The notes: generated from the letters alone by a model not told the origin. Shown: positions 28,650-63,863, numbered from the stretch's first letter. The stretch: DNA of 64,000 nt from Massalongia carnosa (GCA_965645245.1 OZ287067.1:124001-188000); one strand, 5' to 3'. Numbers and translations: made by a program.

Positions 28650-31600
28650 ATGATGTGCAGCAGAGACACAGTCAAGGTCTCAGGTCTTAATATTTGGGTC
28701 AGTGGCGAGCAAGACGGTAATGCACCCGAAGTAGAGTAAGACAAATGATTCTTCATGAAGCCGCAGCATCACTGACAGGCGTTTAAGCGTTATTGCAGTT
28801 CAAGGCCTCGGTGCTCATCCATATTACACATGGATTTCGAGGCAAAATTCTGCGAAGCAACCGAAGTCTAGAAAAGCTCATCGATTCAAGTTCTTAAAAA
28901 GCTGTGCTCAGACTGGCAAACTTTCCGATGTCGCTCAAACGACATCCGACACTGATGAGGTGATGTGGCTTCGAGACTTATTGCCGAACTTCGCTTCAAA
29001 TGCTCGAGTTGCGACATACAGTTACGAGTCAGACTGGCGAAAAGCAGACATCAAAACAAGTCTCCGCAGATGTGGGGAGCAGTTTCTTAATGTTCTTTAT
29101 CAGAATCGGTTAAGTGAAAAAGTCAGTAAAGCGATCGCGGGAATTCTTCATTTGTTCTTACTAATAGTCTATATAGCAACGTCGTCGACCCTTAATTTTT
29201 ATTGGACATAGCCTTGGAGGTTTAATTATCAAACAGGTCGGTCTAGCTTGACACTAAATTTTTTAATTACTAAGGTCCTCTTTATAGGCTCTAGTATTAG
29301 CCAATCATAGTGAATATTTTAGAGATATTAAACTGTCCACGACTGGGATAATCTTTCTTGGAACACCACATCAAGGAAGTGACGCTGCAGTATATGGTAC
29401 ATGGCTTGCTCAAGCAGTAGGACATGATAAGACATTATTAGAGTCTTTAAAAACAAACAGTCCTACTCTTCATGATGTAGCGCGGGACTTCGAAACAAGT
29501 TACATCAAGGTTGATGTCGTTTGTTTTTATGAGGACAAGAAAGTGTCATATGGACCTTGGCAGACTCAGGTCTGATAACTCTGTTTTCACGCTCAACTGG
29601 GATGAAAGCTTATGACTCATAGCTCGTTGATTATCAATCAGCTTCTTTGCTTAGCAAAAGGATCATATATCTCACTACGGATCACTCAGGGTTGAATAAA
29701 TTCAATGGCCCTGAAGATGAAAATTTTCTCTTGATAAAGCCAGAGGTTCAAAGAATGATTCAGAATGCGTCTCAAAGAGTCGAGGAACATTATCACTGTA
29801 TGATTTATTTTCCTTACTCTAGATTTCATGTTTTTCAAGGCTTCTCTGACTTTTTGTCAGCTCCTGTTGAAATCTGCGTAAAAAAATCGTTCCACGTTGA
29901 ATTCAGTCTTCAGGGCATTCCTGTGATGAATTATTTTGTGGCCCGAGACGCAGAGATGACTCAATTGACTCAGAATTTACTTCCCACCACCGTAGGCTTA
30001 ATGCGTCGTAAAGTATTCATTCTTCACGGGCTTGGCGGGATTGGAAAGACTCAGCTCTCCGTTGAATTCGCTCGACAATATCACAAGAACTACACCGCGG
30101 TCTTCTGGGTCGATGGTTCGACTAAGGAGAGACTGAGGCGAAGCATTGCTGATCTTGCTGGTCGACTACCACAGCATCAGATATCTGAAAATAGCAGAAA
30201 TTATTCACAGGAGAAAAGCATGAAGAATAACGCAGATGTGAATGAGATCGTTAAGGATGTGCTTAATTGGTTATCACAGTCATCAAATGATCAATGGCTG
30301 CTAATTTTTGACAATTTGGATCGAGAGTTTTCCGTATCAATTGAAGATCCGAAAGCCTTCAATGTTCAAGATTTTTTCCCAACGGCAGATCAAGGATCTA
30401 TCCTTATCACTTCTCGACTAGCCAGTTTATATCATTTGGGTACGGATATGAAAGTGAAACCGGTCAATCAATTGCAAGGAGAAAGTATTCTCGAGAAGTG
30501 TCTCGGGCAATCCATGCAAGGTCAGTGCAATAAGAAGCATACTTGCTCGGGCATTATCTGACATTCGAGACTTATTAGATTTATTCAAGATTGTCAATCA
30601 ACTGCAAGGCCTTCCTCTGGCGATTAATCAAGCCGGTTTATACATGCGGAAAACAGGCACAAACGTGTCTGGGTACATTAAATCATATAATCACACATGG
30701 GAAAAATTAATGAACAAGCAGCATCGCTCCACATTTCAAGCAGACACAGATCGCAGTGTTTTGACAACATGGATATTATCTTTCAATCACCTCCAGGCGC
30801 AAAGTGAGGACGCAGCGAAACTTTTAATGCTGTGGGCGTTTCTCGACAATCAAGATCTCTGGTACGAGCTTTTTGCGTCTGCGCTAGATCTTGACATTGT
30901 CGACAAGATGCCTGATTGGTATATCAGATGTGCAGGTGATGAACTTGAATTCAAAGACTGCATAGGACTACTTTTGGAATATTCCTTTATCGATGCAAAA
31001 ATTGAATCAACTTCCTTCTTTATGCATCCTGTGCTTCATCAATGGTCATTTCACGCATTTGAGAAAGAGAACACTGATATGAGCTGGCTTGCCATGATTA
31101 TTGTCGCGTCCGCTGTACCTTTAGAGACTGTGCCTAACCATTCTTTCATATCGAGACGTCTTCTGCCACATTGCGATCGTGTTTTCCCATTACTGAAGCA
31201 TCACATACAAGAAAGCTTTGTTAACGAGACAGATCCTTTATCTTTTAGCTACGCATGTCATGAATTAGGTCGTCTGTACTCCGATCAAGGCAAAATGAAA
31301 GAAGCCGAAGAAATGTATCTGCGGGCACTGACAGGCTACGAAAAGGCCTGGGGCGTCGAGCACACGTCGACGCTCGACACTGTCAACAATTTAGGAGCTC
31401 TGTACTTCAATCAAGGCAAAATGAAAGAAGCCGAAGAAATGTATCTGCGGGCACTGACAGGCAAGGAAAAGGCCTGGGGCGTCGAGCACACGTCGACGCT
31501 CAACACTGTCAACAATTTAGGAGCTCTGTACAGCGATCAAGGCAAAATGAAAGAAGCCGAAGAAATGTATCTGCGGGCACTGACAGGCTACGAAAAGGCC

Positions 31601-31870
31601 TGGGGCGTCGAGCACACGTCGACGCTCGACACTGTCAACAATTTAGGAGCTCTGTACTTCAATCAAGGCAAAATGAAAGAAGCCGAAGAAATGTATCTGC
31701 GGGCACTGACTGGCAAGGAAAAGGCCTATGGACCTAAGCATAAATCGTCCTTTGACACAAGATATAATTTAGGAATTTTGTACAAGAAAAGATCTATGTT
31801 TGAGGATGCGACACATCACTTCAAGCTTGTCGTACAAGGCTATACAAGTACACTAGGATCCGATCACTAG
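28650..31870 (+). CDS. NLR-like STAND protein: SesB-like alpha/beta-hydrolase, NB-ARC, TPR (multi-exon)
   Basis: Manual splicing gives DVIAVQGLG, WLRDLLP, FIGHSLGGLIIKQA, FLGTPHQGS, DHSGLNKF; Walker A LHGLGGIGKT; Walker B WLLIFDNLD; GLPLAI; MHP; 42-aa TPRs. About six short introns; start codon uncertain. Confidence 0.9.
31274..31727 (+). repeat. 126-bp near-identical TPR-coding tandem repeat (~3.6 units)
   Basis: Units start at 31274, 31400, 31526 and 31652. Confidence 0.97.
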
Positions 31871-32938: not shown

Positions 32939-35900
32939 TGTTAAATGGTAAGGCTACCATCAGTTAGATGGTCAGACTACCACTAGTATAGGCATCCATC
33001 GTGAGCCTCGGGAGGTGCCTTGCAAAGTGCCTAAAAAAAGCAAATATGGGAGTCAAGTTCTGACCGTCAGGGGACAAGGTCTGACCGTTTAGGCTCCTAG
33101 ATGTGACTGTTTTGTGACTGTTATATAAAGCAGACAAATAGCCCACATAGATAATCACCTTCATTGACAATCATGCTACTATACCTACAAAGTGAATTTA
33201 TATTTCATAGGTTATGAGCCCGGCTTACTTCTGCTACGTCTGAAAAGCCTCCACATTGATTGTCAACCAACTTACCTCCATCCCTCCATCTACTCCATTC
33301 TATACTATATATATTCCCTACCTCCGTCCGCGCCAAAGTCAAAGTATCAGTCCATTCCACAGGATCACTGCCCTATTCCTCATTTCGTCTTTCTTGTAGC
33401 ATCATGGCTAAAAGGGAGAGCCTATACACGTTCCCCAAACTGATGGGGAGCGGGAACTATAAGAAATGGTCCAGAGACATGGCCTTCGCCCTGCAGGAAG
33501 CGGAACTTTGGAGTTATGTTACTGGGGCCCGGAAAATACCTCGAGAGATTACCTTTCCATCAAATAGTTCTGATGATGACGAAGTCTCTCTGGAAGAAAC
33601 ACAGGATTAGCTCGATAAGCGGGATCAACGGGACCTTGAACGACTGGAGTTCGAGGAAAAGTAAAGAAGAGTAGTAGGAAAGATAGGCAAGATGTGCACG
33701 GACGACGTGCAGCAAGAATTCTTGTCGATGAGCGACCTAGCCAACGGTGAGATCTGGAATCCCAAGGACCTCTGGGAGCATTTGAAGACCCGTTATACAT
33801 TGAAGAACTGGAGTGCTAAGTGGAGCACCTTCAACCGGCTAGAGGAGATCAATTATGAAAAGTGCAAGACCATTGAGGAGTACGGTAGCCTGGTCAGAGA
33901 TATCAAGGCTGAGATCACCGACATTTCCATCTCTGTCGAGCAAATAGTGGTGCTCAAGCTTCTCAACGGACTTGGTAGTTCATTTAGCACCTACCCGACC
34001 ATCCTGAACGAATAGGCCCGGCGGGAGGATAAAATCCCTGCGCTGGATGGACTACTGAAGAACCTGGAGGACGAAGAAGCTCGAATGCGCCAGGACTCTG
34101 TTGCCATAGCTAACATGCTGAAGGCAAAGTAGAATAAGAACCCCACTGGAGAGGGTAAGAGCAAATGTAAATATTGTGGTTATAACCACTCCGGGAAATG
34201 CAGGCATAGCAACGCCACATGTAGGAAATGTGGTAAGACCGGCCACCTGGAACGCGTTTGCGAAGACAAAGGAGGTAATGAAACCTCGAAACCCTAAATA
34301 GTTTGTACAATAAGGGAATGTTCCGGGAAAAGAACCCAGGAAACACCGCCTATTTGTATGGCAAATCTGTACCGAGGCCCCAAGAATGCCCACGATCTAT
34401 TGATCGACTCCGGTGCCACCGCGCACATTATATGCAATAAAGATCTCTTTCAAGAAGGGACCTTTCGGAGCGAAAATATCTGTTTAGAAACAGGTTCCGG
34501 AGAGGTTTTATCGACAGAGGGGAAAGGCTCTCTACTCGTATCACTGCACAATGGAAATGGAGATGTAACGGACCTCATTTTGACCAACGTCCTTTCGCCC
34601 CCGACCTAAAATTCAACCTCATCAGCAAAATACAACTCGCCAAAAAGGGCATATCTACGTACCTGATGGCGGATGACAAGCCCGCTCAACTGGTGCATAA
34701 AGGAAAGGTGGTTGGACTGGCCAAAACAATAAATAATCAGTATATAAATAATCAGTATATAAATAATCAGTATATAAATAATCAGTATATAAATAATCAG
34801 TGTATTTTGCAGACAACCACTATTAGCCCTACCGAAGCACGGGCCCTCACCACCACAAACGGTACAAAGGCCCCTATCCAAACATGGCACGAACGACTAG
34901 GCCATCTCAGCTACCCAAACCTCCTAAAATTAAATCATTTAGCCAATGGAGTCACCATCGAAGGACCCATACCAGAAGAAGTATGCGGCTCATGCATGAT
35001 GGGAAGACAACAGCGGAAAATAAATCGCACTCCACGAACCCGAGCAACAGAATTTCTCGGAATAGTGCATAGCGACTTAGGGGGACCATTTCCACTGACA
35101 AGGTTCGGTGAACGTTTTTATGCTACGATGAAAGACGACTTCTCCGGGGTAGTGTGGATCTACCTGCTGAAATCAAAGGGTCAAACTTTCGAATGTTTTA
35201 AGCAGTTCAAGACATGGATAGAAAATCAATCGGGAAAGAAAATAAAGAGACTCCGAGCTGATGGAGGAGGGGAGTACACCAGTGGTGACTTCCAGGAATT
35301 CCTAAAGAGTGAAGGCATCCAGTGGGAGGCCCGGGCACCAAATGTGCCAGAACAGAATGGGAAGGCCGAAAGGCAAAATTATACCCTCATGGTCCCCACT
35401 CGGTCCATGATGAAGGCTAAAAAGCTTCCAAAGTCCCTTTGGGGGGAGGTCCTGAAGACGGCCGGGTCGACGAGGTCACTCCATATGAACGCATGAATAA
35501 TGCGAAACCCTTCCTCGGCCACATGAGAACGGTCGGGGCTAGGACGTGGGTACATATCCCAAAAGAGAAGCGCAAGAAGCTGGACGATAGGTCCTGGCAG
35601 GGGATAATTGTTGGGTATGAAGGAAACAATCAGTATCGAATTTACGATCCTCTCACTGGAAAAGTCCATGTTTGTCGCGATATCACCGTCGACGAAGGCA
35701 ATATATATAATTCCAAGGACAAAAAGGCCTGGGACCTAGCCGACATTCCATGGGAGGGAGACGATGATGCTTTGTTTGATGACCCAGATGATTTTGTTGA
35801 TGAAAACAAAAGTCATAATCCGCCATCTTCGTTGTCTCCGAAAACTCCGAGCTCTGAAATATCGAGAGGTTCGGAATTTCAAAATGAAACGGCCCCACCA

Positions 35901-46459: not shown

Positions 46460-49400
46460 TGACTGATCCAATGGTCGTCGGGTTGATGTTGAGCACCTGG
46501 CCCCATATCCTCTGCATCTGCCGCTCTACCTCTGAAATTGACTGCCGCTTCGTGCCTCGTCCTGCCGTCTGCATTTCAGCCAGTTGTTGGACAGAGAATG
46601 ACCCGCCGATCTCACACAGTCGTCTCCGGTTTTTCTTTCCTGTGGCTGTCATAGGCAGCTCCCGCATGGAAAAGAACACTGTCGGTATCATATAGCTCGG
46701 TAGATGCTCGGCCAACCTGCCCTCAAGACTAGCATCAATGAGGAGTAAACTGGCAAAGACACTCCCTCGCCGGTCTGTCTCTGTGACATCATCATTCATC
46801 TGGACAAACGCTGCTAACATTGGGCTTGAATTGTCCCCTTCCGGCACAATCACCTCGATCACAACATGCTCTGCCTCCAGCATGCACTCCTGGACGTGGT
46901 GCGCAACCTCTTCAAGCTCGACTCGCTGTCCACGGATCTTGACTTGCGTGTCTTTCCGCTTGATACACGTTAGACTTCCATCTTCGTTGTACCGGACCAG
47001 GTCACCTGTCTTGTAGAGTCGTCCATGCCTTCCTGGCCGATCTAGCGCGTCTTGTAACAACCATACTGGGTCCTCAATGAATACCGCTGCCGTCTTTTCT
47101 GGATTGTTCACGTAGCTAGGGCCGACAAGCGGCCCTTCAAGTAGTAGCTCGCCGATGGATCCAAGTGGGAGCAGATGATCGTGGTTTTTTGAATCGACAA
47201 CCCAAGTCACGAGCCCGGCACCTTTTCCTATGGGAGTGGTCTCTTCTGGACTAGATGCACTGCAATTGATCGTACTGAGTGTGGTGCATTCGCTTGGTCT
47301 ATATGCTTGGAGGACCCGCACCTTACCCCCACCAAGGTTTTACATCGTTAATATGAACTTTCTCACCAGCCAAAATAATCATCTGTAACTGAGTTGTCTA
47401 CTCGGGAACTAGAAGCTGAGCAACAGACGGGGTAAGATCGATGACATTAGCATGGAGAGATGCTATGCTCTCCGTCAGCTTATTCCTCCGGTCTTGATCG
47501 CTTGGGACACATAAACAACCACCCACAAGAAGGGTTGTAAAAGCGTTGCTAATAGTTGCATCAAAGCCTTAGGATGCAAAATCAAAGACTCTTGAGTCTG
47601 TCGTCAATCCTCGGAGTCTTAGCTGATGGTGGAGAGCTGAAGCCACATGCCTGTGGGTTATCACTACCCCTTTTGGTGTCCCTGTACTGCCTGATGTGAA
47701 AACCACATACATGACAGACCATGGGCTGGGGCCAGAAAGGTGCTCAATCGGTCCATCACCCAGGTCTGCAAAAAATTCCGAACTGACAGTGATAACCTGT
47801 TGCGCTAGCCGCGAGCTCAGAGCATAGTTGGAGAGAGAAAATAGGACCAGGCTTGCTTTGGTTTGTTTGACGATGTCCTGAAGACGTTGCTCAAGATGTG
47901 AGGGGTCAAGCAAGACAAAGCCGCCGCCCGCCTTAAGCACGCCAAGTATCGTGACTGTCGTCCACATTGACTTCTCAAAACAGAGTGGCACCAGAACGTC
48001 CGGCCTGACACCGAGCTCGACAAGCCGGCCCGCTAGTCCCATAGCAAGCTGGTTTAGTTCGCTGTATGTTAGCTCACCATCCCACGCGCGCACACGGCTG
48101 GTGCGCTAGGCTGAGCCTGTGCCTGCTCCTCAATCATCTTGTGGACGCATCGCTCGACTGACACTGGAACAATGCTATTCCATTCCCATATCTCTTTGAG
48201 GTCTTTCTGTGTGACCATCTTGATCTCCTTTAACGTCCGGTTAGAATTCGCATTGTCAAACTGGCCTATTACAGCTTCAAGCCGCTCTAGTAAATTCTGC
48301 ACCACCCACGGCTCGATCACCCTTGAGTCAAAGCTGGCTGAAGCTGTAATGTTGTCTGCGTCAAGCCGTATCTCAAGCATAAGAGCATATGTGCTGAATC
48401 ACTGTTGTTGGCTGCTATCCTGCCACTTCCCAAGCAGATCCTGGGTAGAGTCATTATCCTGCAGCTAAATGACAAGCAGCGTTTAGAACATGCACGATTA
48501 CTTACTATCAGGGCCCATCTTGGCAATTTGATGCAAGCCAGTCTGCTCAAAAGGGATCATATCTATTGCTTGTCGTTGTTCTGCCTCCAAATATTCTGAA
48601 ACTCTTTGGTTGCTGGCTACCTTTATGCGCACTGGAGCCGTGGCGATTGTTGGGCCTGCCATCTCATCAATGCCAACAACAGGCGCGTTCCTTCCAGACA
48701 CTGTGACGCCAAACAAAACATCATCTGAGTCTGTCATATGGCTAGTGACCAAGGCCCATGCAGCGCGGATAAGCGTTAATGTTGTAATATCCAGAGACTG
48801 TCTTTGGGGCAATAGGAATTGATGCTCTATTACTATGTCTGCCACCGGCTGTTGCACAGATGGCGGGAGGGCTGGGAACGGTGTACAATTGCAGTCTGCC
48901 AGCACTTGTTGCCAGTAATCCACCACCTTTTTATCGTCTTGCTCATCGATATATTTGATAAACGTTTTGAACTGAGGCCTAGACTCAAGCGCCTCACCAC
49001 AATATACCCGATTAACTGCGTTCATAATCAGAGGCAGTGACCAGCCATCATAGATGGCGTGTTGTACCGTCCACACGAACCACTTGTATATACCTGTATC
49101 ATCTTTGACAAGAGCATACCGGGCGAGCGGCTGACCTATCTCCATAGACTCTTTTCTGTCAGCTTGGAGATACTCATTTAGTCCTGTTGCCTCAATCCAA
49201 GGGATGTCTTCGTCCAAGACCACCTGCAAAAGGCCAATATCATTGTGCTGAACAATTCTTGTACGCAAGATTTCCATTGTCCCGGCTACTTCCTTCCATG
49301 CATTGTAGAAAGCCCCGATTGTGCTGTCTGAAGATAATTCTAGGGTACTTTGCATAATGTAGTCTCCTGATCGCTTTGATGACAGAGACAAAAGACCTTC

Positions 49401-50445
49401 TTGAAGTGGAGTGTATGGATATGCGTCCTCAATAGTAGCTGGGTCCAATTGACACTGAATCGAAATATTCTGGATGAGCAAGGTGATATCAAAGCTGTTA
49501 CCCAGAAGAGAAAATGGTATGATATACTCCAGAAGGTCATCCGCTAAACCAAGCCCCTGGTGTGCCACATGCTCCAACCGAGGATGGCGGAAGATGTTTG
49601 TCATTGCTAGTTTGACGCCAATCTTTTGAGCCTCACTCACAAGTTTCATTGCTGCAATTGAGTCACCTCCAAGCCGGAAGAAACTATCGTCAAGCTCAAT
49701 GGTCGTCGGGTTAATGTTGAGCACCTGGCCCCATATCCTCTGCGTCTGCCACTCTTCCTCTGACTTCGGCTGCCTCTTTTTGTCTTGCCCAGCTGTCTGC
49801 ATCTCAGCCAGCTGTTGAACAGAGAATGACCCACCAATCTCACACAGTCGTCTCCGGTTTATCTTTCCTGTGACTGTCATAGGTAGCTCCTTCATGGAAA
49901 AAAATACTGTTGGCACCATATACCTCGGTAGATGCTTTGCCAGCTTGTCCTCTACATCAGCAGTAATGAGAAGAATATTGGCCATGGTAGACTCTGCCTC
50001 GTTGGTTTCTGTCACATTGTAGTTTATCTTGGCGAACGCCGCTAACACTAGGCTTTGATTCTCCCCTAGCGGCATAATGACTTCAACCACAACCTGTCTC
50101 GCTTGCGGTAGGCACTCCTGCACGCGGTACTCAACCTCTCCAAGCTCAACTCGTTGTCCGCGGATCTTAACTTGTGCATCTTTTCGGCCAATGAACGTCA
50201 GGCTCCCAGCTTTGTTGTACCGCACCAGGTCACTTGTCTTATAGAGTCGTCCATATCCTCCTAGCCGACCCGGCGCCTCTTGCAGTAGCCATGCTGGGTC
50301 CTCAAAAAACGCGGCTGCAGTCTTCCCTGGATCGTTTAGGTAGCCCTGGAAGATAAGTGGCCCTTCAAGCAGTAGCTCACCGATGCATCCGAGCGGGAGT
50401 AGATTACCGTAATTATCTGGATCCACAACCCAAGCTACCAGCAGG
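46460..50445 (-). pseudogene. Non-ribosomal peptide synthetase fragment (partial A, T, C, A, partial T)
   Basis: GELLLEGP, LYKTGDL, QVKIRGQRVEL (twice), FFRLGGDSIAAMKL, YTPLQEGL, QHAIYDGWS, FTSGSTGTPKG. Frameshifts and stops; truncated at both ends. Confidence 0.93.
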
Positions 50446-51169
50446 CCCGCGGCGGGATGTCCTTCCCAAGCCGTGCACGGCCAAGCCCTCACCCGCGTTT
50501 TCGAGGGCGCACAGGAGTCTGGGAGGGTCGTAGCAGCCAATACCGCCTAGGAGGTGGGCTTGGGCTTGATGGGTGTAAGGTTTTGGTCCAGGCGCTCCCG
50601 TCTTCTCCCAGCGAGCATTTTATTTGAAAAAGTAAATGAGAAGGCAAGGATCATAGATATATTTAAAGGCAGTAAGCTGACCAGGGAGAGCTTCGAATTC
50701 GATCAAGCGCTCGTAAAACTTCACAGCAACGACCGGGGCCCAAAGACAAGGCCGATGAACGTGCGAATATACTGATGCGGACCGTCAACGGCGCAGCTAC
50801 TTCATGATGCGTCGGACGAACCGCTGGCGCTGTGCGTGATTCAGGAGGACGAAGGGGCCGGTGTCAACATGACGGAATCGACGAAAGCGCTCGCCACGAA
50901 AGAAGGGCTCGGAGGAAATCATCCGAACGTCCGTGACAGCATCATCGCGATCAGATGGGTTTGGAGGATTTTCACGATGGGAGTTCATGCTCACTGTTGA
51001 CTAGCAGGAATGCAAAGGCGTCAGAATGGACAAGGTTTCTTACGTCTGAGCATGCCATTTTTGCTAACTTGCTTCGGGCGCTCTGGGCTAGCTCCCGGCG
51101 CAGTTTTAGCACCGAGCTAGAGGCCCTGAGAGCTACTCGCAATCGCTTACAGTAGTACTGTACAAGGTA

Positions 51170-53494: not shown

Positions 53495-53770
53495 CTACCC
53501 TATTGCACCAGCGGCAAGTAACATTTGCATCTCCTTATCATGACCTTTCGCTGATGCCGTCCACAATGTGTAGTCACAGCCTTCACTTTGTGCGTTGAGA
53601 TTAGCCTCTTTGTCGAGCGATATCTGCATCACTCGATCATGATCATTAAATGACGCCGTCTGCAGTTGCATCGTCAATGGCTCCACCTCGAGCGTTCTCA
53701 TCGGCTCTTTTCTTCAGCAGCAGCTGCAATGCTTGATCATGATCTTCTTTTGATGTCGCTTGCACTTCAT
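53495..53770 (-). pseudogene. Ankyrin-repeat gene remnant
   Basis: About three degenerate repeats, e.g. TLWTASAKGHDKEMQMLLAAGA. Confidence 0.7.
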
Positions 53771-54417
53771 CTCTGTGAATCGCAAGTCAATTATCACTTA
53801 GATCAGTGAAGGTTTTTCTGTCAACCTCAGTCCTTGCTTAAAGGCTTTGAAATGTCCAAACAAATCTCAATAATGTCAACGTACTGACCTGACATAATGA
53901 AAATGATAGGAATAGATGTCAGGACTTGATGTATTGTAATTGCTCGTCTCATCTTCAGCTATGTCGTCGATTGTGATGCTCAATCGCTTTACAATTTTAG
54001 CGTACTTTATCAAAGGCTAGGCTCGACAGGCGTAAGCACTGATTGTACGTCTTTGAAAATCTCCATCATTGCATCTACGTAGCTCAATGAAGTAAGATGC
54101 TTATTCATTCAATAATGATTTGAGATCTTGTCAGACTTTTGTTCTGAAGTGCTTACGGAAGCAAGGGCAGGATTCAGAGATCGGACATAAGTTGGATAAG
54201 CATTCTCTGCTAAGAGGCCCCTCTAGCTGCGGCATATTTGAAGCCTGGAACTCTTGTCATGCGAGCTCTTCACGTCTCACAAGGAGTCAACTTTCACCCG
54301 AAGCTGATGACTGCGCAAAAAAACTTTGTTTTGAAAGACGTCAAAAAGTCAATTGATTATTTCATGTCCCTGAATAGTTTCCTAGAATGACTCCGCAATG
54401 ATTGCCTATCCCTCGGT

Positions 54418-55681
54418 CTACACAGAGTCTTTTGGGTTAATGCCATGATAAGTATTCTTTATTTTCTGTCAGCTTGTACATCGCTATCGAATGGATAGGT
54501 GATCCTTACAGTGATACTACTCCCAGATATTTTAACACCTTCTGTGGCCGTACTATTTGCATGACCCATAATCACACCTGGATTGTTATCGATTTTGTCC
54601 CTAAAGTTAACATCGCCCATACGAACCGAATGGTTCTGTTGATTTACAGCTAACTTCAAGCGCGCGAAAGAGATGTCAGACCTGGCGATCCTCTCCAGAC
54701 CCCTTGGATCGACTATTAAGATCCGATATCCATTGAACCAACTTTTGTGAGATTCTCTTGTATCCCTCTCGGTCTTCATCCTCAAACTTGCACATATCAA
54801 CATGGTTCGCCTGGATCGACTGTGGATCGATACCAGGCAGGCAAGCCGATTCCTTGGCCACGATAAATCCCATCTTCGTCCCTCCCTCATACATAGCATA
54901 CTGTTCAAAGAAACAAGCTACTTCCACAAACTCTCTTGATTCTGAACGATCCCATGCTTTCAGGAATTTCTGAAAGGCCTCGTTAACGCTGATGAGCTTT
55001 GCCGAACGCTCTTCAAGATCCTTTATATCCTGCTTATGCGTGGTGCTTATCCAGCCCAGTATCTGTAGAGCCCTGCTTCCCCATTTTGCTTTTGACGATC
55101 CCTCAAAGGACGTTCCAAGGAAGACGACTCCAATCGTTCTCTCTACGAGGGTAGTGCTAGCAATGTCGGTACCATTGTGCCTTGACAACGCATTGGCGCA
55201 CACGAGACCCCCTAGGCTGTGCGAGACGAAAATAATCGGCCGTTCAGCCTGGACATAGACATCCTATTAGCATATTTCTGGTGGAAAGGGTAGGGGTGCG
55301 CCGATTCCTACAGTTTTGGTTTTCTCGTGGAGACTGATTAGGCTCTGAAACATTGCAGTCGCGTGATCATCAATAGTCAAATGCTCCGGGATGAATTTCG
55401 GTCCAACAAACGGATAGAAGTGAGCAAAGTCCGCATTGTAACCAAAAGAAGGATGCGAGCTGTTGGGCAGGCTTGAGTTAAGAGATCTTGCGGCCACAAC
55501 AGCGATCTATCTCGACCCTCCCATGTCCAAGTTTTCACTCTGTCGCCGCCGAGCCCGTGGACGAAGACAATACTGTTGGGTCAATACAAAGCAACCCGGA
55601 CGAGAAATGACATCTGGTGCGTACTCTATATTCGCGTCTGGAGAATCAAAGAGGGTCGCCTAATCCGTACGGTTCGGCCAT
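54418..55681 (-). pseudogene. Stand-alone SesB-like alpha/beta-hydrolase with C-terminal putative amyloid motif (two homopolymer frameshifts, possibly artefactual)
   Basis: DIVFVHGLGG, LWPQDLL, FGYNA, IIFVSHSLGGLV, FLGTSFEGS, CFFE, NHVDMCKF. Introns 55573-55624, ~55250-55311, 54636-54681, 54457-54509. Tail NHSVRMGDVNFRDKIDNNPGVIMGHANSTATEGVKISGSSITNTYHG. Confidence 0.85.
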
Positions 55682-56025
55682 GCTGGCGTTGTCATCGCAA
55701 TACTACAGAGGGGTCGTGCTTCAAATTTAGCACTATGACTTATGCGAGATAATTGTGATACCGCCTGCATGGAGAGACCAGGCGCTTCAGCACGTGCATA
55801 GCCTTGGCTCTATCAGCCATCTATCCCGCATGATGGCGGGGGCCCCTCCATCGGCGAGTCCGTGCCTATATTTATACTTAGAGATGAACAGTGCTTTTAG
55901 AAAGTCTTGGGCGTCGAGTTTCCGGCCGAGCCTAGGTGCGGTCCTGAGCACGGTAAAGGTAATGGTTTTCAAGTCTTATTCAATATAGCTCCGAGCTCTA
56001 ATGTCTACAATCTTCCGACGCAGCA
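55682..56025. promoter_or_regulatory. Putative bidirectional promoter between hydrolase and NLR
   Basis: 344 bp between divergent ATGs; AT-rich TATATTTATA at ~55868-55877 reads TATA-like on both strands. Inferred from geometry only. Confidence 0.5.
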
Positions 56026-58754
56026 ATGGCCGGTAACACGCCAGTAGTCTCTACAGGCACGAAGGACTTCGGCACGATTTCTGGCAACCAAGGCGCTGTG
56101 ATCGGTGACGTCTCAGGCTATGCGAAAGTGATTGGTTTGCGTCCTGTTCATATCGATATTGATCTTATGCTAAATCCTGATTAGGCTCTCAGACAAACAA
56201 TATTGTTCAATATCCAGGCAAGTCGCCATTCACAATAATATAGCGTCCTGTGAGCCAAGGCTGATAGCATTCTGCGTTTGTAGAAAGACCCGATACCCCA
56301 CCAAGCCCATCATCTGCTGTTCGTTTCCCCCGCGACCCTGATTTCGTCGATCGCGGAACGCTACTTGATCAGATCCACGAAAAGTGCTCCGCGCCAGCAT
56401 CAAGGGTAGCGCTTGTCGGCCTAGGCGGCGTTGGGTAAGCCAAAGGGCCTCAGGCTAGTTCTAATAGCTTACTTTCGCAAAGAAAGTCGCAGCTTGCCAT
56501 CGAGTACTGCTATCGAATCAGAGAGCAGTTGCCGACGACGTGGGTGTTCTGGATACACGCTAGTAATGCAGCCCGTATCGAGCAAGGTTATCGGGATGTT
56601 GCAGAGCAAGTCAAGATTCCTGGCAGGGAGGACCCAAAGGCGGACATATTCCGGCTAGTTGACAAGTGGTTACGCGACGAAAAGAACGGAAAGTGGGCTC
56701 TGGTCCTCGACAATGCCGACGAAGCTACTGTGCTTTTCGAAACTCATGCTACAGGCCAGAAGGCGCAGGATTGCGGCATTAGAAGCGGGCTCACGCAATC
56801 ACTGTTAGCATATCTACCTCAGAGTCGAAACGGCTCGATTCTCATCACCTCCCGGACTAAAAGCGTGGCATTGCGGCTAGCAGAAGAAAGAGACATAATA
56901 CCGGTTGAGCCGATGGACGATACACATGCGCTAGCGCTCCTTGAAAAGAAGCTGGGAGAACAGATGGACAGAGATGATACTGCTGAGCTAGCAGCAGCAC
57001 TCGAATTCATGCCGCTTGCCATCGTTCAAGCGGCCGCATACATTCGACAAAGAGTACCAAGATATTCTGTTCGACAATACATAAAAGAGTTCTATAAAAA
57101 TGATAAAAGAAAGACTAGTCTGTTGAATCACGAAGCGGGACATCTTCGCAGGGACCTGGATGCTAAAAATTCAATCATTATAACCTGGCAAATATCGTTT
57201 GATCATATTCATCAGATCAAGCCTTCGGCAGCTAATCTGCTGTCGCTTATGAGCTTTTTCGATCGACAGGGAATTCCTGAGGCTTTACTCAAGACACAAA
57301 ACGAGGCAGGAAATGAAAATACGGGAGAAAATGCTGGAAATGACGAAGATGATGACCACGAAGACGATAGCAATAAGGATACCGTATCCGATTCCAGCGT
57401 CGACGAGTTTGAAGACGACATACTTGTCTTGAGAAACTTCTCGTTCATCACCATCAGCATAGATGAAACCACCTTTGAGATGCACGGGCTAGTGCAGCTA
57501 GCGATCAGAAAGTGGCTAGAAGCATCCAATCAGCTCGAAAGATGGAAGCAGCAATACATCAAGAATCTCTGTACAGTATTTCCGACGGGAAATTACGAGA
57601 ATTGGACAAAGTGTCAAGCGCTTTTTCCTCACGCAAAGTCGGCAGTAGCGCAGGAGCCAGCTGTCGAAAGCTCATTACAAGACTGGGCCTTGATACTATA
57701 TCACGCTGCATGGTATGCGTGGGCGAAAGGGAGTTACGCTGAAGCAGCGACAATGGCCCTAAAAGCAAAAAGAACCAGGCAAAAAGTGCTTGGTCCAGAG
57801 GATGAAGAGACATTGAATAGTATGGCTATGCTAGCCTTGGCATACAAGGGACAAGGACGATGGACGAAGGCCGAAGAGCTGCAGGTGCAAGTGATGAAGA
57901 CGAGTGCGAGGGTGCTAGGGGCGGAGCATTCTTCCACGCTGATCAGCATGGCCAATCTTGCGTCGACGTACAGGGATCAAGGACGATGGACGGAGGCCGA
58001 AGAGCTGGAGGTGCAAGTGATGGAGACGAGTGCGAGGGTGCTAGGGGCAGAGCATCCAGACACGCTGACTAGCATCGCCAATCTTGCGTCGACGTACAGG
58101 AATCAAGGACGATGGACGGAGGCCGAAGAGCTGGACGTGCAAGTGATGGAGACGAGAAAGAGGGTGCTAGGGGCGGAGCATCCTTCCACGCTGACTAGCA
58201 TGGCCAATCTTGCGTCGACGTACAGGAATCAAGGACGATGGACGGAGGCCGAAGAGCTGGAGGTGCAAGTGATGGAGACGAGTGCGAGGGTGCTAGGGGC
58301 AGAGCATCCAGACACGCTGACTAGCATCGCCAATCTTGCGTCGACGTACAGGAATCAAGGACGATGGACGGAGGCCGAAGAGCTGGACGTGCAAGTGATG
58401 GAGACGAGAAAGAGGGTGCTAGGGGCGGAGCATCCAGACACGCTGACTAGCATGGCCAATCTTGCGTCGACGTACAGGAATCAAGGACGATGGACGGAGG
58501 CCGAAGAGCTGGAGGTGCAAGTGATGGAGACGAGTGCGAGGGTGCTAGGGGCAGAGCATCCTTCCACGCTGACTAGCATGAGCAACCTTGCATTTACGTG
58601 GAAGTCTCAAGGCCGCAATGATGAGGCTCTCTCACTGCTAAAGGAATGTTTTCAGCTCCAAAAACACAAGCTGGGTCCTCAACATTCTCATACAGAGTCT
58701 TCGCTTAAGTATCTCAATGAGTGGCAGATGGAGAGTTTATCATTGGAGTCTTAA
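56026..58754 (+). CDS. NLR-like STAND protein: short putative amyloid N-terminus, NB-ARC, TPR
   Basis: Exons 56026-56134, 56185-56217, 56284-56434 and 56483-58754 give an open frame: ERPDTPPSP linker, FVDR, Walker A VGLGGVGKS, Walker B LVLDNAD, MPLAIVQAAAYI, MHGLVQ, TPR array. Confidence 0.92.
57852..58607 (+). repeat. 126-bp near-identical TPR-coding tandem repeat (6 units)
   Basis: Units start at 57852, 57978, 58104, 58230, 58356 and 58482. Confidence 0.97.
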
Positions 58755-58989
58755 AGCGATTCATATAATTCAGAACTAAATCCTATTACCCTTGAAACCT
58801 ATCCTGATCTTCTTAGCGGTTGATGAACAAGGCAGTGTAAGAATACTACTTTTTATTTTCTCCAAAGCTGAAAGTTTAAAACGTGAATGACAGAATGATC
58901 GAGCTCGCTGACGCACGCGACTACCCCTAGGTTTTACACTCGCCCGCGTTAGCAGAGAGGCCTAAGCGGTGCGCTCTAACTGTTCCAAA

Positions 58990-59205
58990 TAGTAGGAAGT
59001 CGTCAAACCCTCTCCCTTGAGCATTCACCTCCGCGCCCTTGTCCAGCAACATCTCCACAACCTTCTTGTGGCCTAGTTCTGCTGCCCAAATTAACGCTGT
59101 CCGCCAGTGCTGATCTTGTGCCTCCAGATCTACCAATTTAGCATCCTCGATCATTCTCAGGATGACTTCGTATTCATTGAACGCTGCAAGCCTGTTGTCA
59201 TTCAT
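58990..59205 (-). pseudogene. Ankyrin-repeat gene remnant
   Basis: QDQHWRTALIWAAELGHKKVVEMLLDKGAEVNAQG. Confidence 0.8.
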
Positions 59206-59379
59206 GACCGGCTGATCTTCATATCGTGATAAAGCCCGCCACAGTAAGGGAAATCATAGTCGAGGTTAATTATCTTCTCCTCAGCTTAGTTCACAGTCCC
59301 TTGACATATCTGCATCTTTCAACCCGAAAGTAGCATAAGTAGCATTTCGGAAATGGGCCGTCTGATGTTTAGAACCTGA

Positions 59380-62300
59380 TGTTATCAAAAGGCAGTATAG
59401 TAATATATAGTCAATAGAGGATAGAACGCTTGCTTTTGTTCTATATAGTGGGAATAGCTAGATTTATAGACAATGTACGGTATCCTAGTATTAGACTAGC
59501 GATACGTCTAGCCATTAGTTAGCGTGCGCCATACTCGTGCGGTAGAAGGTGAGTGCGGCTGAAATGAAGTAGCCTGATTTGTACATTCTAACACTCCCAC
59601 TCAGGCACTGAAATAGCTCTCCCACATGATAAAGAGAAATTCAATAACTCCCACATACTCCAGTATAATATCATGCTTCCTAGTGGATCACCTGCAGGTG
59701 AGTCAGTGTACTCCGCAGGCTAATGCTGCTGGTGATGTACGAAAACACCCCCGCAGGCTCAGCTGTGGGTGATACTTTTTTTCGGGGGTTAAGGTCGGAT
59801 TTTTACGACAAAGGGCTTCTGGTTTTACTTTAAGCCTAAAGCCCTTCGAAAGACAACAAATTTATCGTTTGGTAGGGCCTTGATTAGGCCGACAGCTACC
59901 TGCTCTTCGGTAGGAACATAGCGAAATTCCACTGATTTGTCTTCGATCTTCTCTCTTTGGTAGTGCCATTGGATGTCGATATGCTTGCTCCGCGCGTGTG
60001 CCTGGGGATTTCTGGCCAAAGCCATTGCTCCTTGATTGTCGCAGTGAATGATGATAGCGTTTAGGGCGAAAGATATAGGCAAGTAGGCAAGGGCTACAGA
60101 GGTGCTCTGGGTTTGGATATAGTTATTCCCAAGGACTTGAGGTGTTGAGAGTTGGTCGAGAAGACTAGACAACCAGGCGGCTTCCTTGGTGGCTTGGTCT
60201 GACCCATGTACTCGACTTCGCATGAAGATAGGGCTACGGTCGGTTGTCGTTTGGAAGACAAGCTAATAGCGCCACTACCAACATTAACACGAAGCCAGAG
60301 GTAGTAGACCTTCGGGTATGATGATCTGCGGCCCAATCCGCGTCAGTGTAACAGTTCAAGGGTTGTAGGCAACCTTTGTATGTTAACTGCAACGGAAGAG
60401 TGCCCTTGATGTATCGAAAGATGCGTTTGACTGCCTTCCAGTGCGTGTCGGTCGGGTTCGAGGCATGGCGGCTGACCACCGGTACGATGTAGGCTAAGTC
60501 AGGCCTGGTGCCTAGCATAGCATACATGAGAGAGCCCACCGCTGATTGGTAGCGGAGGCGAGAGTCATCTGTGGCCTGATGGCCCTCTGGTGCAGCCTCC
60601 AGTCGCCCATCCATCGGGGTAGCCACGGGTTAAGTGTCCCACATGCCATGGTCGCGCATTACTTTTTCCAGATAGTCCTACTGACCAAGGCGAAGAATCC
60701 TGTTGGCCCGATCCCGAGTTATCGTCATGCCCAGGTAGTAATTGATAGGGCCTAAATTAAACATCGAGAACTCGTCGCTCAGCAGTTTCTTGACACATTG
60801 TATCTTTGAAGAAGAAGGGCCAGTGATGATTAAATCATCGACATAAATGGCTACGATAACCCCTTCTTTAACAAAAACGCTAAGGTCGGCATTGACTCGA
60901 ACGAAGTCATGCATGAGACTTGAAAAAAATAGTGATCGTGTCATACGAGATTCTAGACGACTGTTTCAGGCCATAAAGAGCTTTCTTCAACTTGCAAACT
61001 CTCGTTGACCCGTCATCAAGACCGGTTGGTTGCTCCACGTAGATTTCCTCGTCCACCCTTCCGTACAAGAAGGCTGATTTTACGTCCATTTGGTGAATTT
61101 CCTAGTCATTAGCTGCAGCGATAGCGAAGATGGCTTTATAGCTCATTGGCTTCACTACTGAAGCAAAAGTCTCATTGTAGTTAATGCTTTCACGTTGCTC
61201 AAAGCCTCTGACCACCCATCGAGCCTTGTAACGAAGAATCTCGCCAGCCGGGCCTCGTTTGGTTTTATAAACCCATTTGCCTCGCAGGGCTTTGCGGTCC
61301 GAGGGCAGGGAGGTGAGGATCCAGGTATTATTTTCGTTGATAGAGTCGATTTCTTCCTGCATTGCCCTTCGCCAATCCTTATCCTACCGACTGTCTACGG
61401 CCTGTTTATAGGATTTAGGCTCGTATGGCTCCGGGTCATTGGCTCTAGCAAGAAGGGCCAAAAAAGCTAGTGGGTCAGGCGAGGGGGCACGAAGTTTTGG
61501 GTGCTTAGAGAGGATATCTGCCTGGGACCGAGGCTCAGTGGGCCGTTGGTTTGCCAATGCCTCTTGTCTAGCGTTTGGTGGGAGAGGTCCAGTGGGAATT
61601 GATTCTATGGATTCATGAGCGTCGACTAAGTCCGTATGAGGGGCGTCCGTATGATGGGTAATTTTTTTGCTTTCTCGTTGGCGGTCCTGACTGTCCAACA
61701 TGTAAGGCTCTTTTAGTTTGAGAGAATGATAAGGAAGGAGGAGTTGGGGGATTATTATCTATCCACTGAACATTGGAATAACGCATGACCGCGCCCCGTG
61801 GATTTATCATTCGATAGATGTGATCGCCTTCGTATCCTACTACAGTACATTTGGTGGTTCGTTCCTGAAATTTCTTCCATCCGGTGGAGGGCTTGCGATT
61901 TTGCGCATAGCCAGTCTATCCTATTATCTATCCTTAGATGTTCTAGTTCTGGTAGGCTGCCGGTGTGAGACTTATAGGGGGTGATGGAGCGTCCCGCAGT
62001 CGGTCGTCGATTTCGTAGGTAGTTGGCGGTGAGAACCATTTCAGCCCAATATTTGATGTCGAGTTTAGTGCCTTCTCGCATGGTGCTGGCTAACTTGTGA
62101 AGCGTTTGACCTAGGCGCTCGGCTGTCCCGTTCATGAGTGGATTTCCCGGTACGGTAGGCTCCCACTGAATGCCATGCTCGTTTATGAAATTCTCGAAGT
62201 CTTTGGAGTCATACTCACCCCCGCAGTCCGATCGCAAGCGCTTAACTCGTTTGTCCACATATTCGTTTTGCTTCTTGTAGTTTTTAAAGCCTTGAAGGAC

Positions 62301-63660
62301 TCCGCTTTTGACGCGCAGTAAAGTGACGTGAGACCGTTTATCGAAATCGCAAAGAAAAGTCACCATATATTTGGCGCCATTCAAGGATTCTGGGAAAGGT
62401 CCTAGACATCGCTGTGAGTTAAGTCCAGCGGGTGCTTGCCTAGTTGGATGGGGGCCCGGTGTGGTTCTACTTGGGACTGAGCGATGGCGCACGGAGGACA
62501 GGCGTCTTGGGGCGGGGGCTTGATGAGGTCCATTCCTTTTGACATGCCAGCGAGCTTGAGAATGTTTTGATTTCCAAGATGGCCTAAACGAGCGTGCTAC
62601 ATTTTTATCGCCTCGCTATTAATTGCAGCGAGAGCGAGAGCGGCTTCAGAGACGTTCCACATGTTCAGGATATACAGATTGTTGTCCTGGCGGCGAGCAG
62701 TGATACCATAGTTCCCGATTTCAATTCCCTCTGGTACGATCTTCAGGGGACATCCATCTCGTTGTAATTGTCCTTGGGAAATGAGATTTAGGCCTCCGTC
62801 CGGAACGTATAACACATCGAAAAGAGGGAACTCCCGAAGACCCTTGTTACCGGCACACAGCAACATGATGTTACCTATTCCTTTGGGAATTAATACTCCT
62901 CCAATGCCTTGAATTGGTGGGCAATCGGATGTCTTGAATGAGGTGAAGATGGAGCGATCGTGGGTAATATGTTGGCTAGTTCCAGAGTCACAGATCCAGA
63001 GCTTAGATATTTTGGTTATATCCGCGGTGGCCATGTAGGCGCAGAAGGCTCCTTTGGTTGAGTCATTGTTTCCGGTTGGCTTTTGACTTTGACCTTGACT
63101 TTTGGAACTCCTGCGACGCTTATTGGACTTACGCCGTGAGTCTTGGTTAACGAGGTGTGGATATTTTTCATGACACTCGCTCTCTACGTGATAGTCCTTT
63201 CCGCAGTGGTTGCAATACTTGATGGTCTTGGTGATGATTCGAGAATGGGCTGTTCCAGGTTGAGCTCCGCGTTTGAAACTGCTGCCATTGCGATTACGGC
63301 CTTATCGTTGGACTTGCTTGGGTTGGTCACCGTGTTTTGGAAATGCTGCATAGCCTGACTTAATGTGTGCTTGAGTTCACCCATTTCATTGAAAGGATCA
63401 TGATCCTGAGCGTATCGTTCAAAATAGCTGTTGTATTCGAGGCATAAATTGGTATGAAAGCGATAGATAAGCCAGTTTTCGTCCAGGCTTAGCTTGCTTG
63501 AGAAGGTGCGAAGCTTATTGACCGTGGCGCGAAATTGGGTAATAGGGCTGCTGCAATCCGATAGGATAAGGTTGTCTAATTTTCTGAAGGTGTCATTGAG
63601 GAATCCCGAACCGCGAGGCTTATGGTTTGATTCAAGTGAAGCCATCATTGGGAGCGTTTG
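59380..63660 (-). mobile_element. Ty1/Copia LTR retrotransposon 4, 5'-truncated and degenerate
   Basis: 3' LTR 59380-59593 (TGTTA...TAACA) with PPT GAGTGGGAG; WICDSGTSQH, RSDCGGEY, RYKARWVVRG, DVKSAFL, YVDD, TDADWA, RSKHIDI. No 5' LTR or PBS. Confidence 0.92.
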
Positions 63661-63661
63661 G

Positions 63662-63863
63662 TCCCATGTCCAGGTTGGTTTTCACTCCGTCACCGCCGAG
63701 CCCGTGGACGAAGACAATACTGTATGGTCAGTACCAAACAACCCGGACGAGACATGACATCTGGTGCGTACTATATTCGCGTCTGGAGAATCAAAGAGGG
63801 GGTCGCCTAATCCGTACAGTTCGGCCGTGCTGGCGTTGTCATCGCAACACAGAGGAGTCGTAC
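63662..63863 (-). pseudogene. Diverged duplicate of the 5' end of the SesB-like hydrolase gene
   Basis: Aligns to ~55520-55720 (exon 1, intron 1, IVFVHGLGGD...WTW). ATG changed to ACG; fused to Copia 4 gag. Confidence 0.9.

Follow-up and report, generated by a model that had tools for sequence, protein, structure and literature searches.

The window analysed here is a stretch of 64,000 nucleotides of one strand from the lichen-forming ascomycete Massalongia carnosa (GCA_965645245.1 OZ287067.1:124001-188000), in which a gene for a NOD-like receptor (NLR) on the + strand (56026-58754) and a gene for a SesB-like alpha/beta hydrolase on the - strand (55681-54418) are divergently oriented. A motif of approximately 35-45 residues is common to the N-terminus of the NLR and to the C-terminal end of the hydrolase, its putative effector, and the two genes probably form a two-gene NLR signalosome of the PNT1/SBP type, with the motif as a tag of a family that would derive from the PP motif but lacks its glutamine. 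In this paradigm, as set out for PNT1/SBP and NWD2/HET-S in the relevant passages of the literature, a receptor that has a short tag where an effector domain would be and an effector with a matching tag on an unstructured tail are encoded by a divergent gene pair (PMC5485727, PMC3321046, PMC9815663), and the anatomy seen here agrees with it.

The shared peptide is real and is conserved in both protein families. When a profile of six NLR N-termini (A1) was compared with a profile of 13 hydrolase tails (A2), the 34 aligned columns received an hhalign probability of 93.9% (P=1.6e-7), with the two peptides in the register first drawn, and the observed score of 34.3 was reached by none of 200 column shuffles of A2 (null 9.4 +/- 2.4, maximum 17.4). 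A profile made without the window, from 11 hydrolase tails of other species, placed the window tail first among 2946 six-frame pieces of the window (70.8 bits) and NLR exon 1 second, as the best non-self match (10.3 bits, E=0.068). NLR exon 1 scored 78 bits against A1, a profile in which this exon is included, and the spliced window sequences scored 83.4 bits (NLR N-terminus) and 82.3 bits (hydrolase tail) against profiles of their own side from which the window had been left out. The original prediction, made by eye, had proposed that very short introns hide a motif shared by NLR and effector, possibly an undescribed amyloid signalling motif, and that the effector tail contains internal pseudo-repeats; the shared peptide was borne out by these comparisons, and the pseudo-repeats proved to be conserved across the tail family.

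The consensus of 66 distinct tail rows is H-S-V-x-M-G(96%)-D-V-N-Y/F-x-x-K-I-x-N-N(84%)-x-G(96%)-V-V/I-M-G(93%)-H/N-A-x-S-T-A-x-D-G-V-R/K-I-x-G(96%)-S ... Y, with the pseudo-repeats h-x-h-G-D, G-V-h-h-G-H and G-V-K/R-I-x-G-S. In the window, the motif reads ...S-V-R-M-G-D-V-N-F-R-D-K-I-D-N-N-P-G-V-I-M-G-H-A-N-S-T-A-T-E-G-V-K-I-S-G-S-S... in effector exon 4 and ...TG-x-K-x-F-G-x-I-S-G-N-x-G-A-V-I-G-D-V-S-G-x-A-K-V-I-G in NLR exon 1. Charged residues make up 8.0% of the NLR side versus 14.1% of the effector side, a difference in the same direction as that described between HRAM r0 and HRAM r1/r2 (PMC4518210). In an AlphaFold2 model of a full-length hydrolase homologue (P0242), the hydrolase core ends at a helix (residues 265-285), and residues 285-350 have predicted local distance difference test (pLDDT) values below 50 and no secondary structure, in a model whose mean pLDDT is only 62. 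A complex prediction for the NLR exon-1 peptide and the tail peptide, in which alignments were unused, gave no verdict on binding in either direction, the chains being disordered and the score 0.01 against a mark of 0.34.

No model of the Pfam library matched the motif at E<=10, whether in the window peptides, in the four NLR N-termini that bear it or in 12 homologues of the hydrolase; the sigma and HET-s models, for which no positive control was run, should be present in that library. This comparison with existing families, which the original prediction had called for, was made with Pfam models only. Among PDB chains compared with both profiles at E<=10, only two unrelated chains were found, and neither HET-s nor HELLF. 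No description of the motif was found in the open-access texts searched.

The closest known relative appears to be the PP motif, reportedly described by Daskalov et al. in 2012 from PNT1, HELLP and SBP of Chaetomium globosum and Podospora anserina. Its published pattern is FxGx(x)NxGLQLxGxNxGxL (PMC3321046), and the PNT1/SBP pair of C. globosum combines an NB-ARC/TPR NLR with a SesB-like lipase (PMC5485727, PMC3321046). The PP spacing is kept in the new motif as N-x-G-h-x-h-G-x-x-S/N-G, and the position and gene neighbourhood also agree with PP. The G-h-Q-h-G core, with its central glutamine in a pseudo-palindrome, is absent, as had been noted at the outset: the glutamine is invariant in the 12 PP sequences aligned here, and the corresponding position in the 66 tail rows is V in 60%, I in 31%, L in 6% and Q in 1%, and V or I in all six NLR rows. 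Comparison of A1 with the 12-sequence PP alignment gave P=0.0014 over 18 columns, a score reached by one of 200 shuffles; A2 aligned with PP in the same register as A1 (P=0.03; 2/200 shuffles). The PP-type sister NLRs also have the E-R-P-E-T-P-P linker after the motif. From its spacing and position, the motif is most likely an extended derivative of PP that has no central glutamine, distinct enough to be treated as a family for practical purposes. The claim of a distinct family stands insofar as the motif is conserved and goes unmatched by the Pfam model of PP (PF17046), but it is probably not unrelated to PP, given the shared site, the spacing and the profile match.

On the hydrolase side the motif is widespread. 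At least 12 hydrolase homologues among 120 listed have the motif tail, most of the others being open reading frame (ORF) calls that end at the 46-nucleotide intron. Scanned in full by HMMER with A2, 1.84 billion protein representatives yielded 45 clusters at E<=0.001, of which 12 reached E<=1e-10; many of the 45 are exon-sized ORF calls. Named sources of tails include Orbilia, Zopfia, Daldinia, Phyllosticta, Lasiodiplodia, Clathrospora, Lindgomyces, Kalmusia, Fusarium and Penicillium. Eleven longer proteins (10 A2 matches and P0242) were scanned with Pfam, and no effector domain other than the hydrolase was seen: six are alpha/beta hydrolases and five have no match, one of the latter being named SesB-related and another SERAC1 by their sources. 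The motif ends no more than 31 residues from the C-terminus in 25 of the 29 matched proteins of at least 180 residues, the exceptions being P0102, P0274, P0278 and P0292.

On the NLR side, 57 of 121 homologues have a short N-terminus, five of which bear the motif at residues ~8-46, either in a long form (P0126, P0167, P0206) or in a short form (P0150, P0241). GxQxG PP motifs are found in 31 of the 57, at the residues where the new motif sits. The positional restriction for which the original prediction had suggested a profile search, N-terminal in NLRs and C-terminal in hydrolases, was thereby observed.

Recurrence of the motif in neighbouring genes, also anticipated, was confirmed by a second adjacent pair, in another organism. 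A search for related loci with a closer alignment of six tails gave 174 pattern matches and one confirmed locus (L001), a metagenome contig of 2984 nucleotides on which a tail (1473-1703, + strand, 84 bits) and an NLR exon 1 (103-267, - strand, 65 bits) are arranged head to head. Together with the A1-A2 match, the window and L001 thus present the arrangement expected of NLR tags in general, a motif shared by the NLR N-terminus and the C-terminus of a nearby effector. In Clathrospora, the tail and the NLR linker are strung together in one predicted ORF (P0274), which implies neighbouring genes, and effector and NLR ORFs on contigs of equal source and size (47111, P0032/P0170; 5376, P0024/P0173; 3767895) suggest further neighbouring pairs.

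The NLR gene consists of four exons that join into one open frame of 855 codons. Exon 1 (56026-56134) contains the start codon ATG at 56026 and most of the N-terminal motif, as seen from its translation and from RNA contigs of a relative; exon 2 (56185-56217, 33 nucleotides) encodes the end of the motif, S-Q-T-N-N... Y-P, with equal residues in P0126 and P0206; exon 3 (56284-56434) encodes a proline-rich linker, E-R-P-D-T-P-P-S-P-S, followed by the first part of the Walker A loop; and exon 4 (56483-58754) encodes the NB-ARC domain, DUF7779, TPR_10/TPR_12 repeats identified with Pfam, and the stop codon. The introns are very short: intron 1 (56135-56184, 50 nucleotides) and intron 3 (56435-56482, 48 nucleotides) have GT-AG ends, and intron 2 (56218-56283, 66 nucleotides) has GC-AG ends. 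Contigs of four sequencing runs were aligned to 54300-56600, two of which (X14 and X15) are RNA of a relative with ~90% identity; the runs in which the stretch is found carry the label lichen metagenome. Joints in both RNA runs skip 50 nucleotides at 56133/56184 (GT..AG) and 48 nucleotides at 56433/56482 (GT..AG), and one X14 contig skips 66 nucleotides at 56215/56282 with two ambiguous letters; when shifted by two, this joint has GC..AG ends and cuts out 56218-56283. Intron 2 is retained in one X15 contig, so its removal may be incomplete; reading through it meets an in-frame TAG. The N-terminus of the homologue from Lobaria immixta annotated at NCBI (P0126) equals the spliced N-terminus of the window. 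Because of the RNA joints of the relative and the Lobaria N-terminus, the gene models are considered correct, and the splicing first worked out by hand, including the GC-AG intron, is confirmed; the micro-introns hide the motif, and the NLR peptide is missing from ORF-level calls, as had been remarked.

The NLR protein has the features of a fungal NB-ARC/TPR receptor similar to PNT1: an NB-ARC domain with Walker A, TPR_10/TPR_12 repeats, and a short N-terminus of ~46 motif residues and a proline-rich linker ahead of Walker A, without an effector domain. Splicing restores the G-L-G-G-V-G-K-S loop. Exon 4 matches TPR_10 (1.2e-101) and DUF7779, and the NB-ARC match of the exon-4 fragment alone is under the cutoff (17.4 bits, cutoff 23.5); homologues, with E-values down to 1e-240, carry PF00931, and the closest named one is from L. 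immixta (73% identity). A tandem array within the TPR region (57852-58591, + strand) contains 5.9 copies of a 126-nucleotide (42-residue) unit with 92% matches; such highly similar TPR repeats are an organisation typical of the fast-evolving sensor domains of fungal NLRs. The start codons of the two divergent genes are separated by 344 nucleotides (55682-56025), within which an X15 RNA contig (contig 17) begins at 55851.

The hydrolase gene has five exons on the - strand. Exon 1 (55625-55681) begins with ATG at 55681 and is followed by intron 1 (55573-55624, 52 nucleotides), at which loose RNA ends at 55572 resume with sequence starting at 55625. Exon 2 (55312-55572) encodes HGLGGD...ARIL and SFGYNAD..., and intron 2 (55249-55311, 63 nucleotides) is marked by an X15 RNA joint that skips 65 nucleotides with two letters between. 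Exon 3 (54682-55248) encodes the hydrolase core with the nucleophile elbow H-S-L-G-G; it has weak Pfam alpha/beta-hydrolase matches and 133 homologues. Intron 3 (54636-54681, 46 nucleotides) was placed by X14 and X15 RNA joints that skip 49 nucleotides with three letters between and by the logic of the frame, and exon 4 (54510-54635) encodes the C-terminal motif that the tail profile of other species recognized. Intron 4 (54457-54509, 53 nucleotides) lies beyond the RNA cover and is predicted from its GT..AG ends, a branch-like CTGAC and homologues, while the last exon (54418-54456) encodes N-T-Y-H-G-I-N-P... and the stop codon, in agreement with homologous C-termini; beyond this intron, homologue tails read ...GSSTSNTYNGINP or continue with ...N-T-Y-H/N-G-I-N-P. 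The protein qualifies as SesB-like by its H-S-L-G-G elbow, the Pfam matches of the window fragment being under the cutoff. In hydrolase homologues, DUF676 is above the cutoff (P0072, P0108, P0113, P0110), and two homologues (P0067 and P0272) are labelled 'SesB-related regulatory protein' by NCBI.

The frame of the window hydrolase is broken twice, both times inside a homopolymer run. Two bases are lost near 55652 in exon 1; GG is inserted there in an X2 contig and in none of the depth of X1, and the missing bases are present in a truncated paralogue (63662-63861). One base is lost at ~55448 in exon 2, where tblastn switches frame (55443-55449); an extra A is found behind 55448 in the RNA relatives X14 and X15 and in one minor X1 contig. 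Run X1, the best-matching run (DNA), carries both breaks at full depth, and X2 carries the one at 55448; X1 is perhaps the sample behind the window assembly, so that its agreement is not independent proof. The minor X1 contig with the base at 55448 intact has a depth of ~400 versus ~2980, which hints at another copy or strain. The window copy of the hydrolase is probably a pseudogene. With the frame of the effector broken twice, the local pair is probably decaying and may have ceased to function. The window NLR is intact, and relatives keep an intact hydrolase that is transcribed and spliced.

Two other features resemble parts of this gene. The truncated paralogue at 63662-63861 (- strand) is an 88%-identical duplicate of the 5' end of the hydrolase gene (55519-55717), its start codon changed to ACG, and is cut off by the adjoining retroelement. 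Just 3' of the hydrolase stop codon, in another frame, an ORF of 24 codons (54365-54436, - strand) reads ...G-I-G-N-H-C-G-V-I-L-G-N-Y-S-G-T and is the third-best window match of both motif profiles (8-9 bits, E 0.16-0.33); it may be a chance match or a relic of a further copy of the motif.

By analogy with the known systems, binding of a ligand to the TPR array would cause the NB-ARC domains to oligomerise, and the NLR N-terminal motifs clustered in this manner would fold into a stacked beta-arch, amyloid-like nucleus. The nucleus would then template the matching tail of the hydrolase, which might become aggregated, relocated or activated. We infer both the templating and the descent from PP, in the course of which the skeleton N-x-G-h-X-h-G-x-x-S/N-G would have been kept, Q replaced by V or I, and the K/R-h-h-G-S unit appended.

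Several observations weigh against this interpretation. The effector of the window is frameshifted, and a working partner of the NLR has not been demonstrated in this genome. Taken singly, the two window peptides recognize each other with only ~10 bits in both directions (E about 0.07-0.11, 2946 pieces, leave-window-out profiles). A search with the NLR N-terminus profile, in word-indexed form, retrieved only five proteins among 4790 candidates, four of which had been recognized previously, which leaves few sequences behind the NLR side. Adjacent pairs have been seen as DNA in only two cases, the window and L001, and the NLR (P0167) and hydrolase (P0242) of Lindgomyces ingoldianus are on different contigs and hence not neighbours. 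Residue identity within versus between pairs is 8/26 versus 8/26 for the window pair and 11/26 versus 8/26 for L001, the only two pairs available; as identity within pairs is not clearly higher, co-evolution of the partners is not shown. The amyloid fold is proposed purely by analogy. The link to PP is also weak, with hhalign probabilities of 17.7% (A1) and 1.7% (A2), and PF17046, which is the PP model under a 'misnamed SesB' label (PMC12261475), does not match the four motif-bearing NLR N-termini, the window peptides or any of 12 hydrolases, tail-bearing or related, at E<=10.

The last two observations bear on whether the motif might be nothing new, that is, a plain divergent subfamily of the known PP family ('Ses_B' in Pfam). 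The gene pair is of the same type as PNT1/SBP of C. globosum (PMC5485727, PMC3321046), the motif occupies the position of PP in sister NLRs and is followed by the same linker, the N/G spacing is alike with profile scores above the shuffle null, and the short forms in P0150 and P0241 look intermediate. PF17046, however, readily detects PP-type sister NLRs used as positive controls (P0134 and P0136, 32.7 and 31.0 bits, cutoff 23.2; E=7e-8 and 2e-7) while passing over every motif-bearing sequence scored, the defining glutamine and pseudo-palindrome are absent, the motif has about twice the length of PP, and its two sides match each other far better than either matches PP; a mere PP subfamily is accordingly unlikely. 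The weak probabilities to PP, the different length and the three-unit build, together with an effector side that is broadly distributed and seems to be old (Orbilia, Daldinia, Fusarium, Penicillium and many Dothideomycetes), would suit an independent family whose glycine spacing converged through the beta-arch fold. To this we give about as little credence, as motif-bearing and PP-bearing NLRs alike are 58-73% identical to the window NLR in the NB-ARC region, have PP or the new motif at equal residues and share the linker, and the best PP alignment falls in one register for both sides, which only one or two of 200 shuffles equal.

It is more doubtful still that the peptide has a role other than amyloid templating, whether as a one-to-one docking strand, as a common signal for targeting or degradation, or as a remnant of the fission of an all-in-one SesB-NB-ARC-TPR gene. 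Although the tail is fairly charged (14%) and all-in-one SesB-like/NB-ARC/TPR genes exist, one of them at ~28.8-31.9 kilobases of the window, a leftover of fission would not stay conserved at both ends across fungal classes, and the conserved glycines and asparagines, the runs of V/I, the three-fold pseudo-repeat and the predicted disorder of the tail fit the amyloid class; every studied motif shared by NLRs and effectors (HRAM, PP, sigma, PUASM) is amyloid or prion-like according to the part of PMC9815663 that surveys them. A chance likeness of two low-complexity peptides rich in glycine, serine and asparagine could account for the marginal scores of single sequences, but is very improbable: it is contradicted by the family-level match, which no composition-preserving column shuffle equals, by the rank of NLR exon 1 as best non-self match of a tail-only profile, and by the two motifs facing each other again in L001.

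A two-gene signalosome with a PP-derived tag therefore remains the preferred explanation. Among the instances of prion-like signal transduction in immunity, fungal NLRs with amyloid tags are understood best, and to our knowledge only about five or six tag families have been catalogued (HRAM, PP, sigma, PUASM 1-2 and provisionally GDQN). At somewhat less than even chances, the motif might represent a further, old tag family ranging from Orbiliomycetes to Lecanoromycetes, Eurotiomycetes, Sordariomycetes and Dothideomycetes, dedicated to SesB-like lipases, descended from a PP motif that lost its 'indispensable' glutamine and acquired an additional strand, acting as an orthogonal channel without cross-talk to PP pairs of the same cell, and missed until now through dropped 5' micro-exons. 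If so, the fungal NLR tag system would gain a branch used only by lipases, and the motif would illustrate how an old signalling channel gives rise to new ones that are insulated from each other. Glutamine is regarded as the core element in PP, RHIM and BASS3, and the motif would be a natural test of what the central glutamine contributes to fold and seeding specificity. As the receptor motif is split by introns of 50-66 nucleotides, one of them GC-AG, protein-level surveys under-count such pairs, a blind spot apparent in the five annotated motif-bearing NLRs found versus 45 clusters on the effector side.

Elsewhere in the window, an 'all-in-one' NLR is encoded at 28759-31870 (+ strand), where a SesB-like hydrolase segment precedes ORFs with AAA_16/NB-ARC and TPR_10/12; the hydrolase segment aligns by tblastn at 29186-29533 with 28% identity to P0242 and has stops in the alignment. 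Fused and split (tag-coupled) architectures are thus found 25 kilobases apart in one window. A Copia/Ty1-like retrotransposon with many stops (~59800-63700, - strand) contains an rve integrase core, a Pol beta-barrel domain and gag-like ORFs, and a second integrase/gag_pre-integrase ORF is located at 34441-35496 (+ strand). A long open frame at 48498-50546 (- strand) encodes phosphopantetheine-binding and condensation domains and belongs to a non-ribosomal peptide synthetase gene. On both sides of the NLR/hydrolase pair lie fragments of ankyrin-repeat ORFs (58927-59253, - strand, Pfam Ank; 53495-53713, - strand, ankyrin-like by eye only), and the pair may lie inside or beside a broken ankyrin-repeat gene.

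PUASM and GDQN, reportedly from Wojciechowski et al. 2022 and from Bioinformatics 2025, are recent additions to the paradigm of motifs shared by NLRs and effectors, an indication that the catalogue is still open. When the motif is set against published patterns and positions, none of PP, sigma, PUASM, GDQN and HRAM fits it. PUASM (FxGxGxQxxGxGxF) couples PNP_UDP effectors with NACHT NLRs (PMC9815663), and GDQN (NxxxGxQYxxxGxGDQNxVSxxxxQxN) is on a SesA protein (PMC12261475). Neither pattern fits the new motif and neither sits on a hydrolase; in place of the partners of PUASM, the effectors here are hydrolases and the NLRs are of the NB-ARC/TPR type. NLR34, an unassigned motif of 28 residues from 29 ascomycete NLRs with no neighbour matches (PMC9815663 Table 1), could be the NLR side of the new motif. 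Six accessions of family members have no occurrences in the PMC9815663 supplements searched, whose data end at ~2019, making the result uninformative.

With HRAM1-5 the new motif has in common that the NLR bears one copy and the effector a version richer in charge, as well as a hydrophobic run followed by G-D/N. The HRAM unit has 21 residues, with G19, hydrophobic residues at positions 5, 8, 10, 16 and 18 and R/K at 15, and is doubled with a loop on HeLo-type proteins (PMC4518210). By inspection, whichever conserved glycine of the new motif is taken as G19, positions 15, 5 and 8 misfit.

The sigma motif is known from SesA, SesB and HET-eN of Nectria haematococca and has the Pfam model NACHT_sigma. 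Like the new motif, it consists of ~40 residues in three short repeated units and is found on SesB-like lipases and NLR N-termini. Its units are GxGxQFNxx and GGTQNINT, and the sigma copy of het-eN was at first missed on account of an unnoticed 5' intron (PMC3321046), just as 5' introns hide the NLR copy here. In contrast to the Q/N-rich sigma units, those of the new motif are h-h-h-G-D/H/S with almost no glutamine, no Pfam model matches them, and a three-fold GxGxQFNxx and/or GGTQNINT is absent from the tail consensus. In one tail (P0108) the usual first unit is replaced by an opening G-G-G-T-Q-N-N-I-N-Y; this is similar to unit B of sigma (GGTQNINT) and may connect the new motif with sigma.

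The likeness to PP extends to the whole arrangement: both motifs are found on the N-terminus of an NB-ARC/TPR NLR and on the C-terminus encoded by an adjacent SesB-like lipase gene, and both start at NLR residues ~5-10, with an aromatic F and G ahead and a proline-rich linker after. Unlike PP, which has 17-23 residues, the new motif has ~35-45, with an extra K/R-h-h-G-S unit and, in the tails, also a first h-x-h-G-D unit. V or I stands in place of the central glutamine and the pseudo-palindrome is absent. No HeLo-like partner of the kind known for PP was seen among the A2 matches, and all those in which a domain can be recognised are hydrolases.

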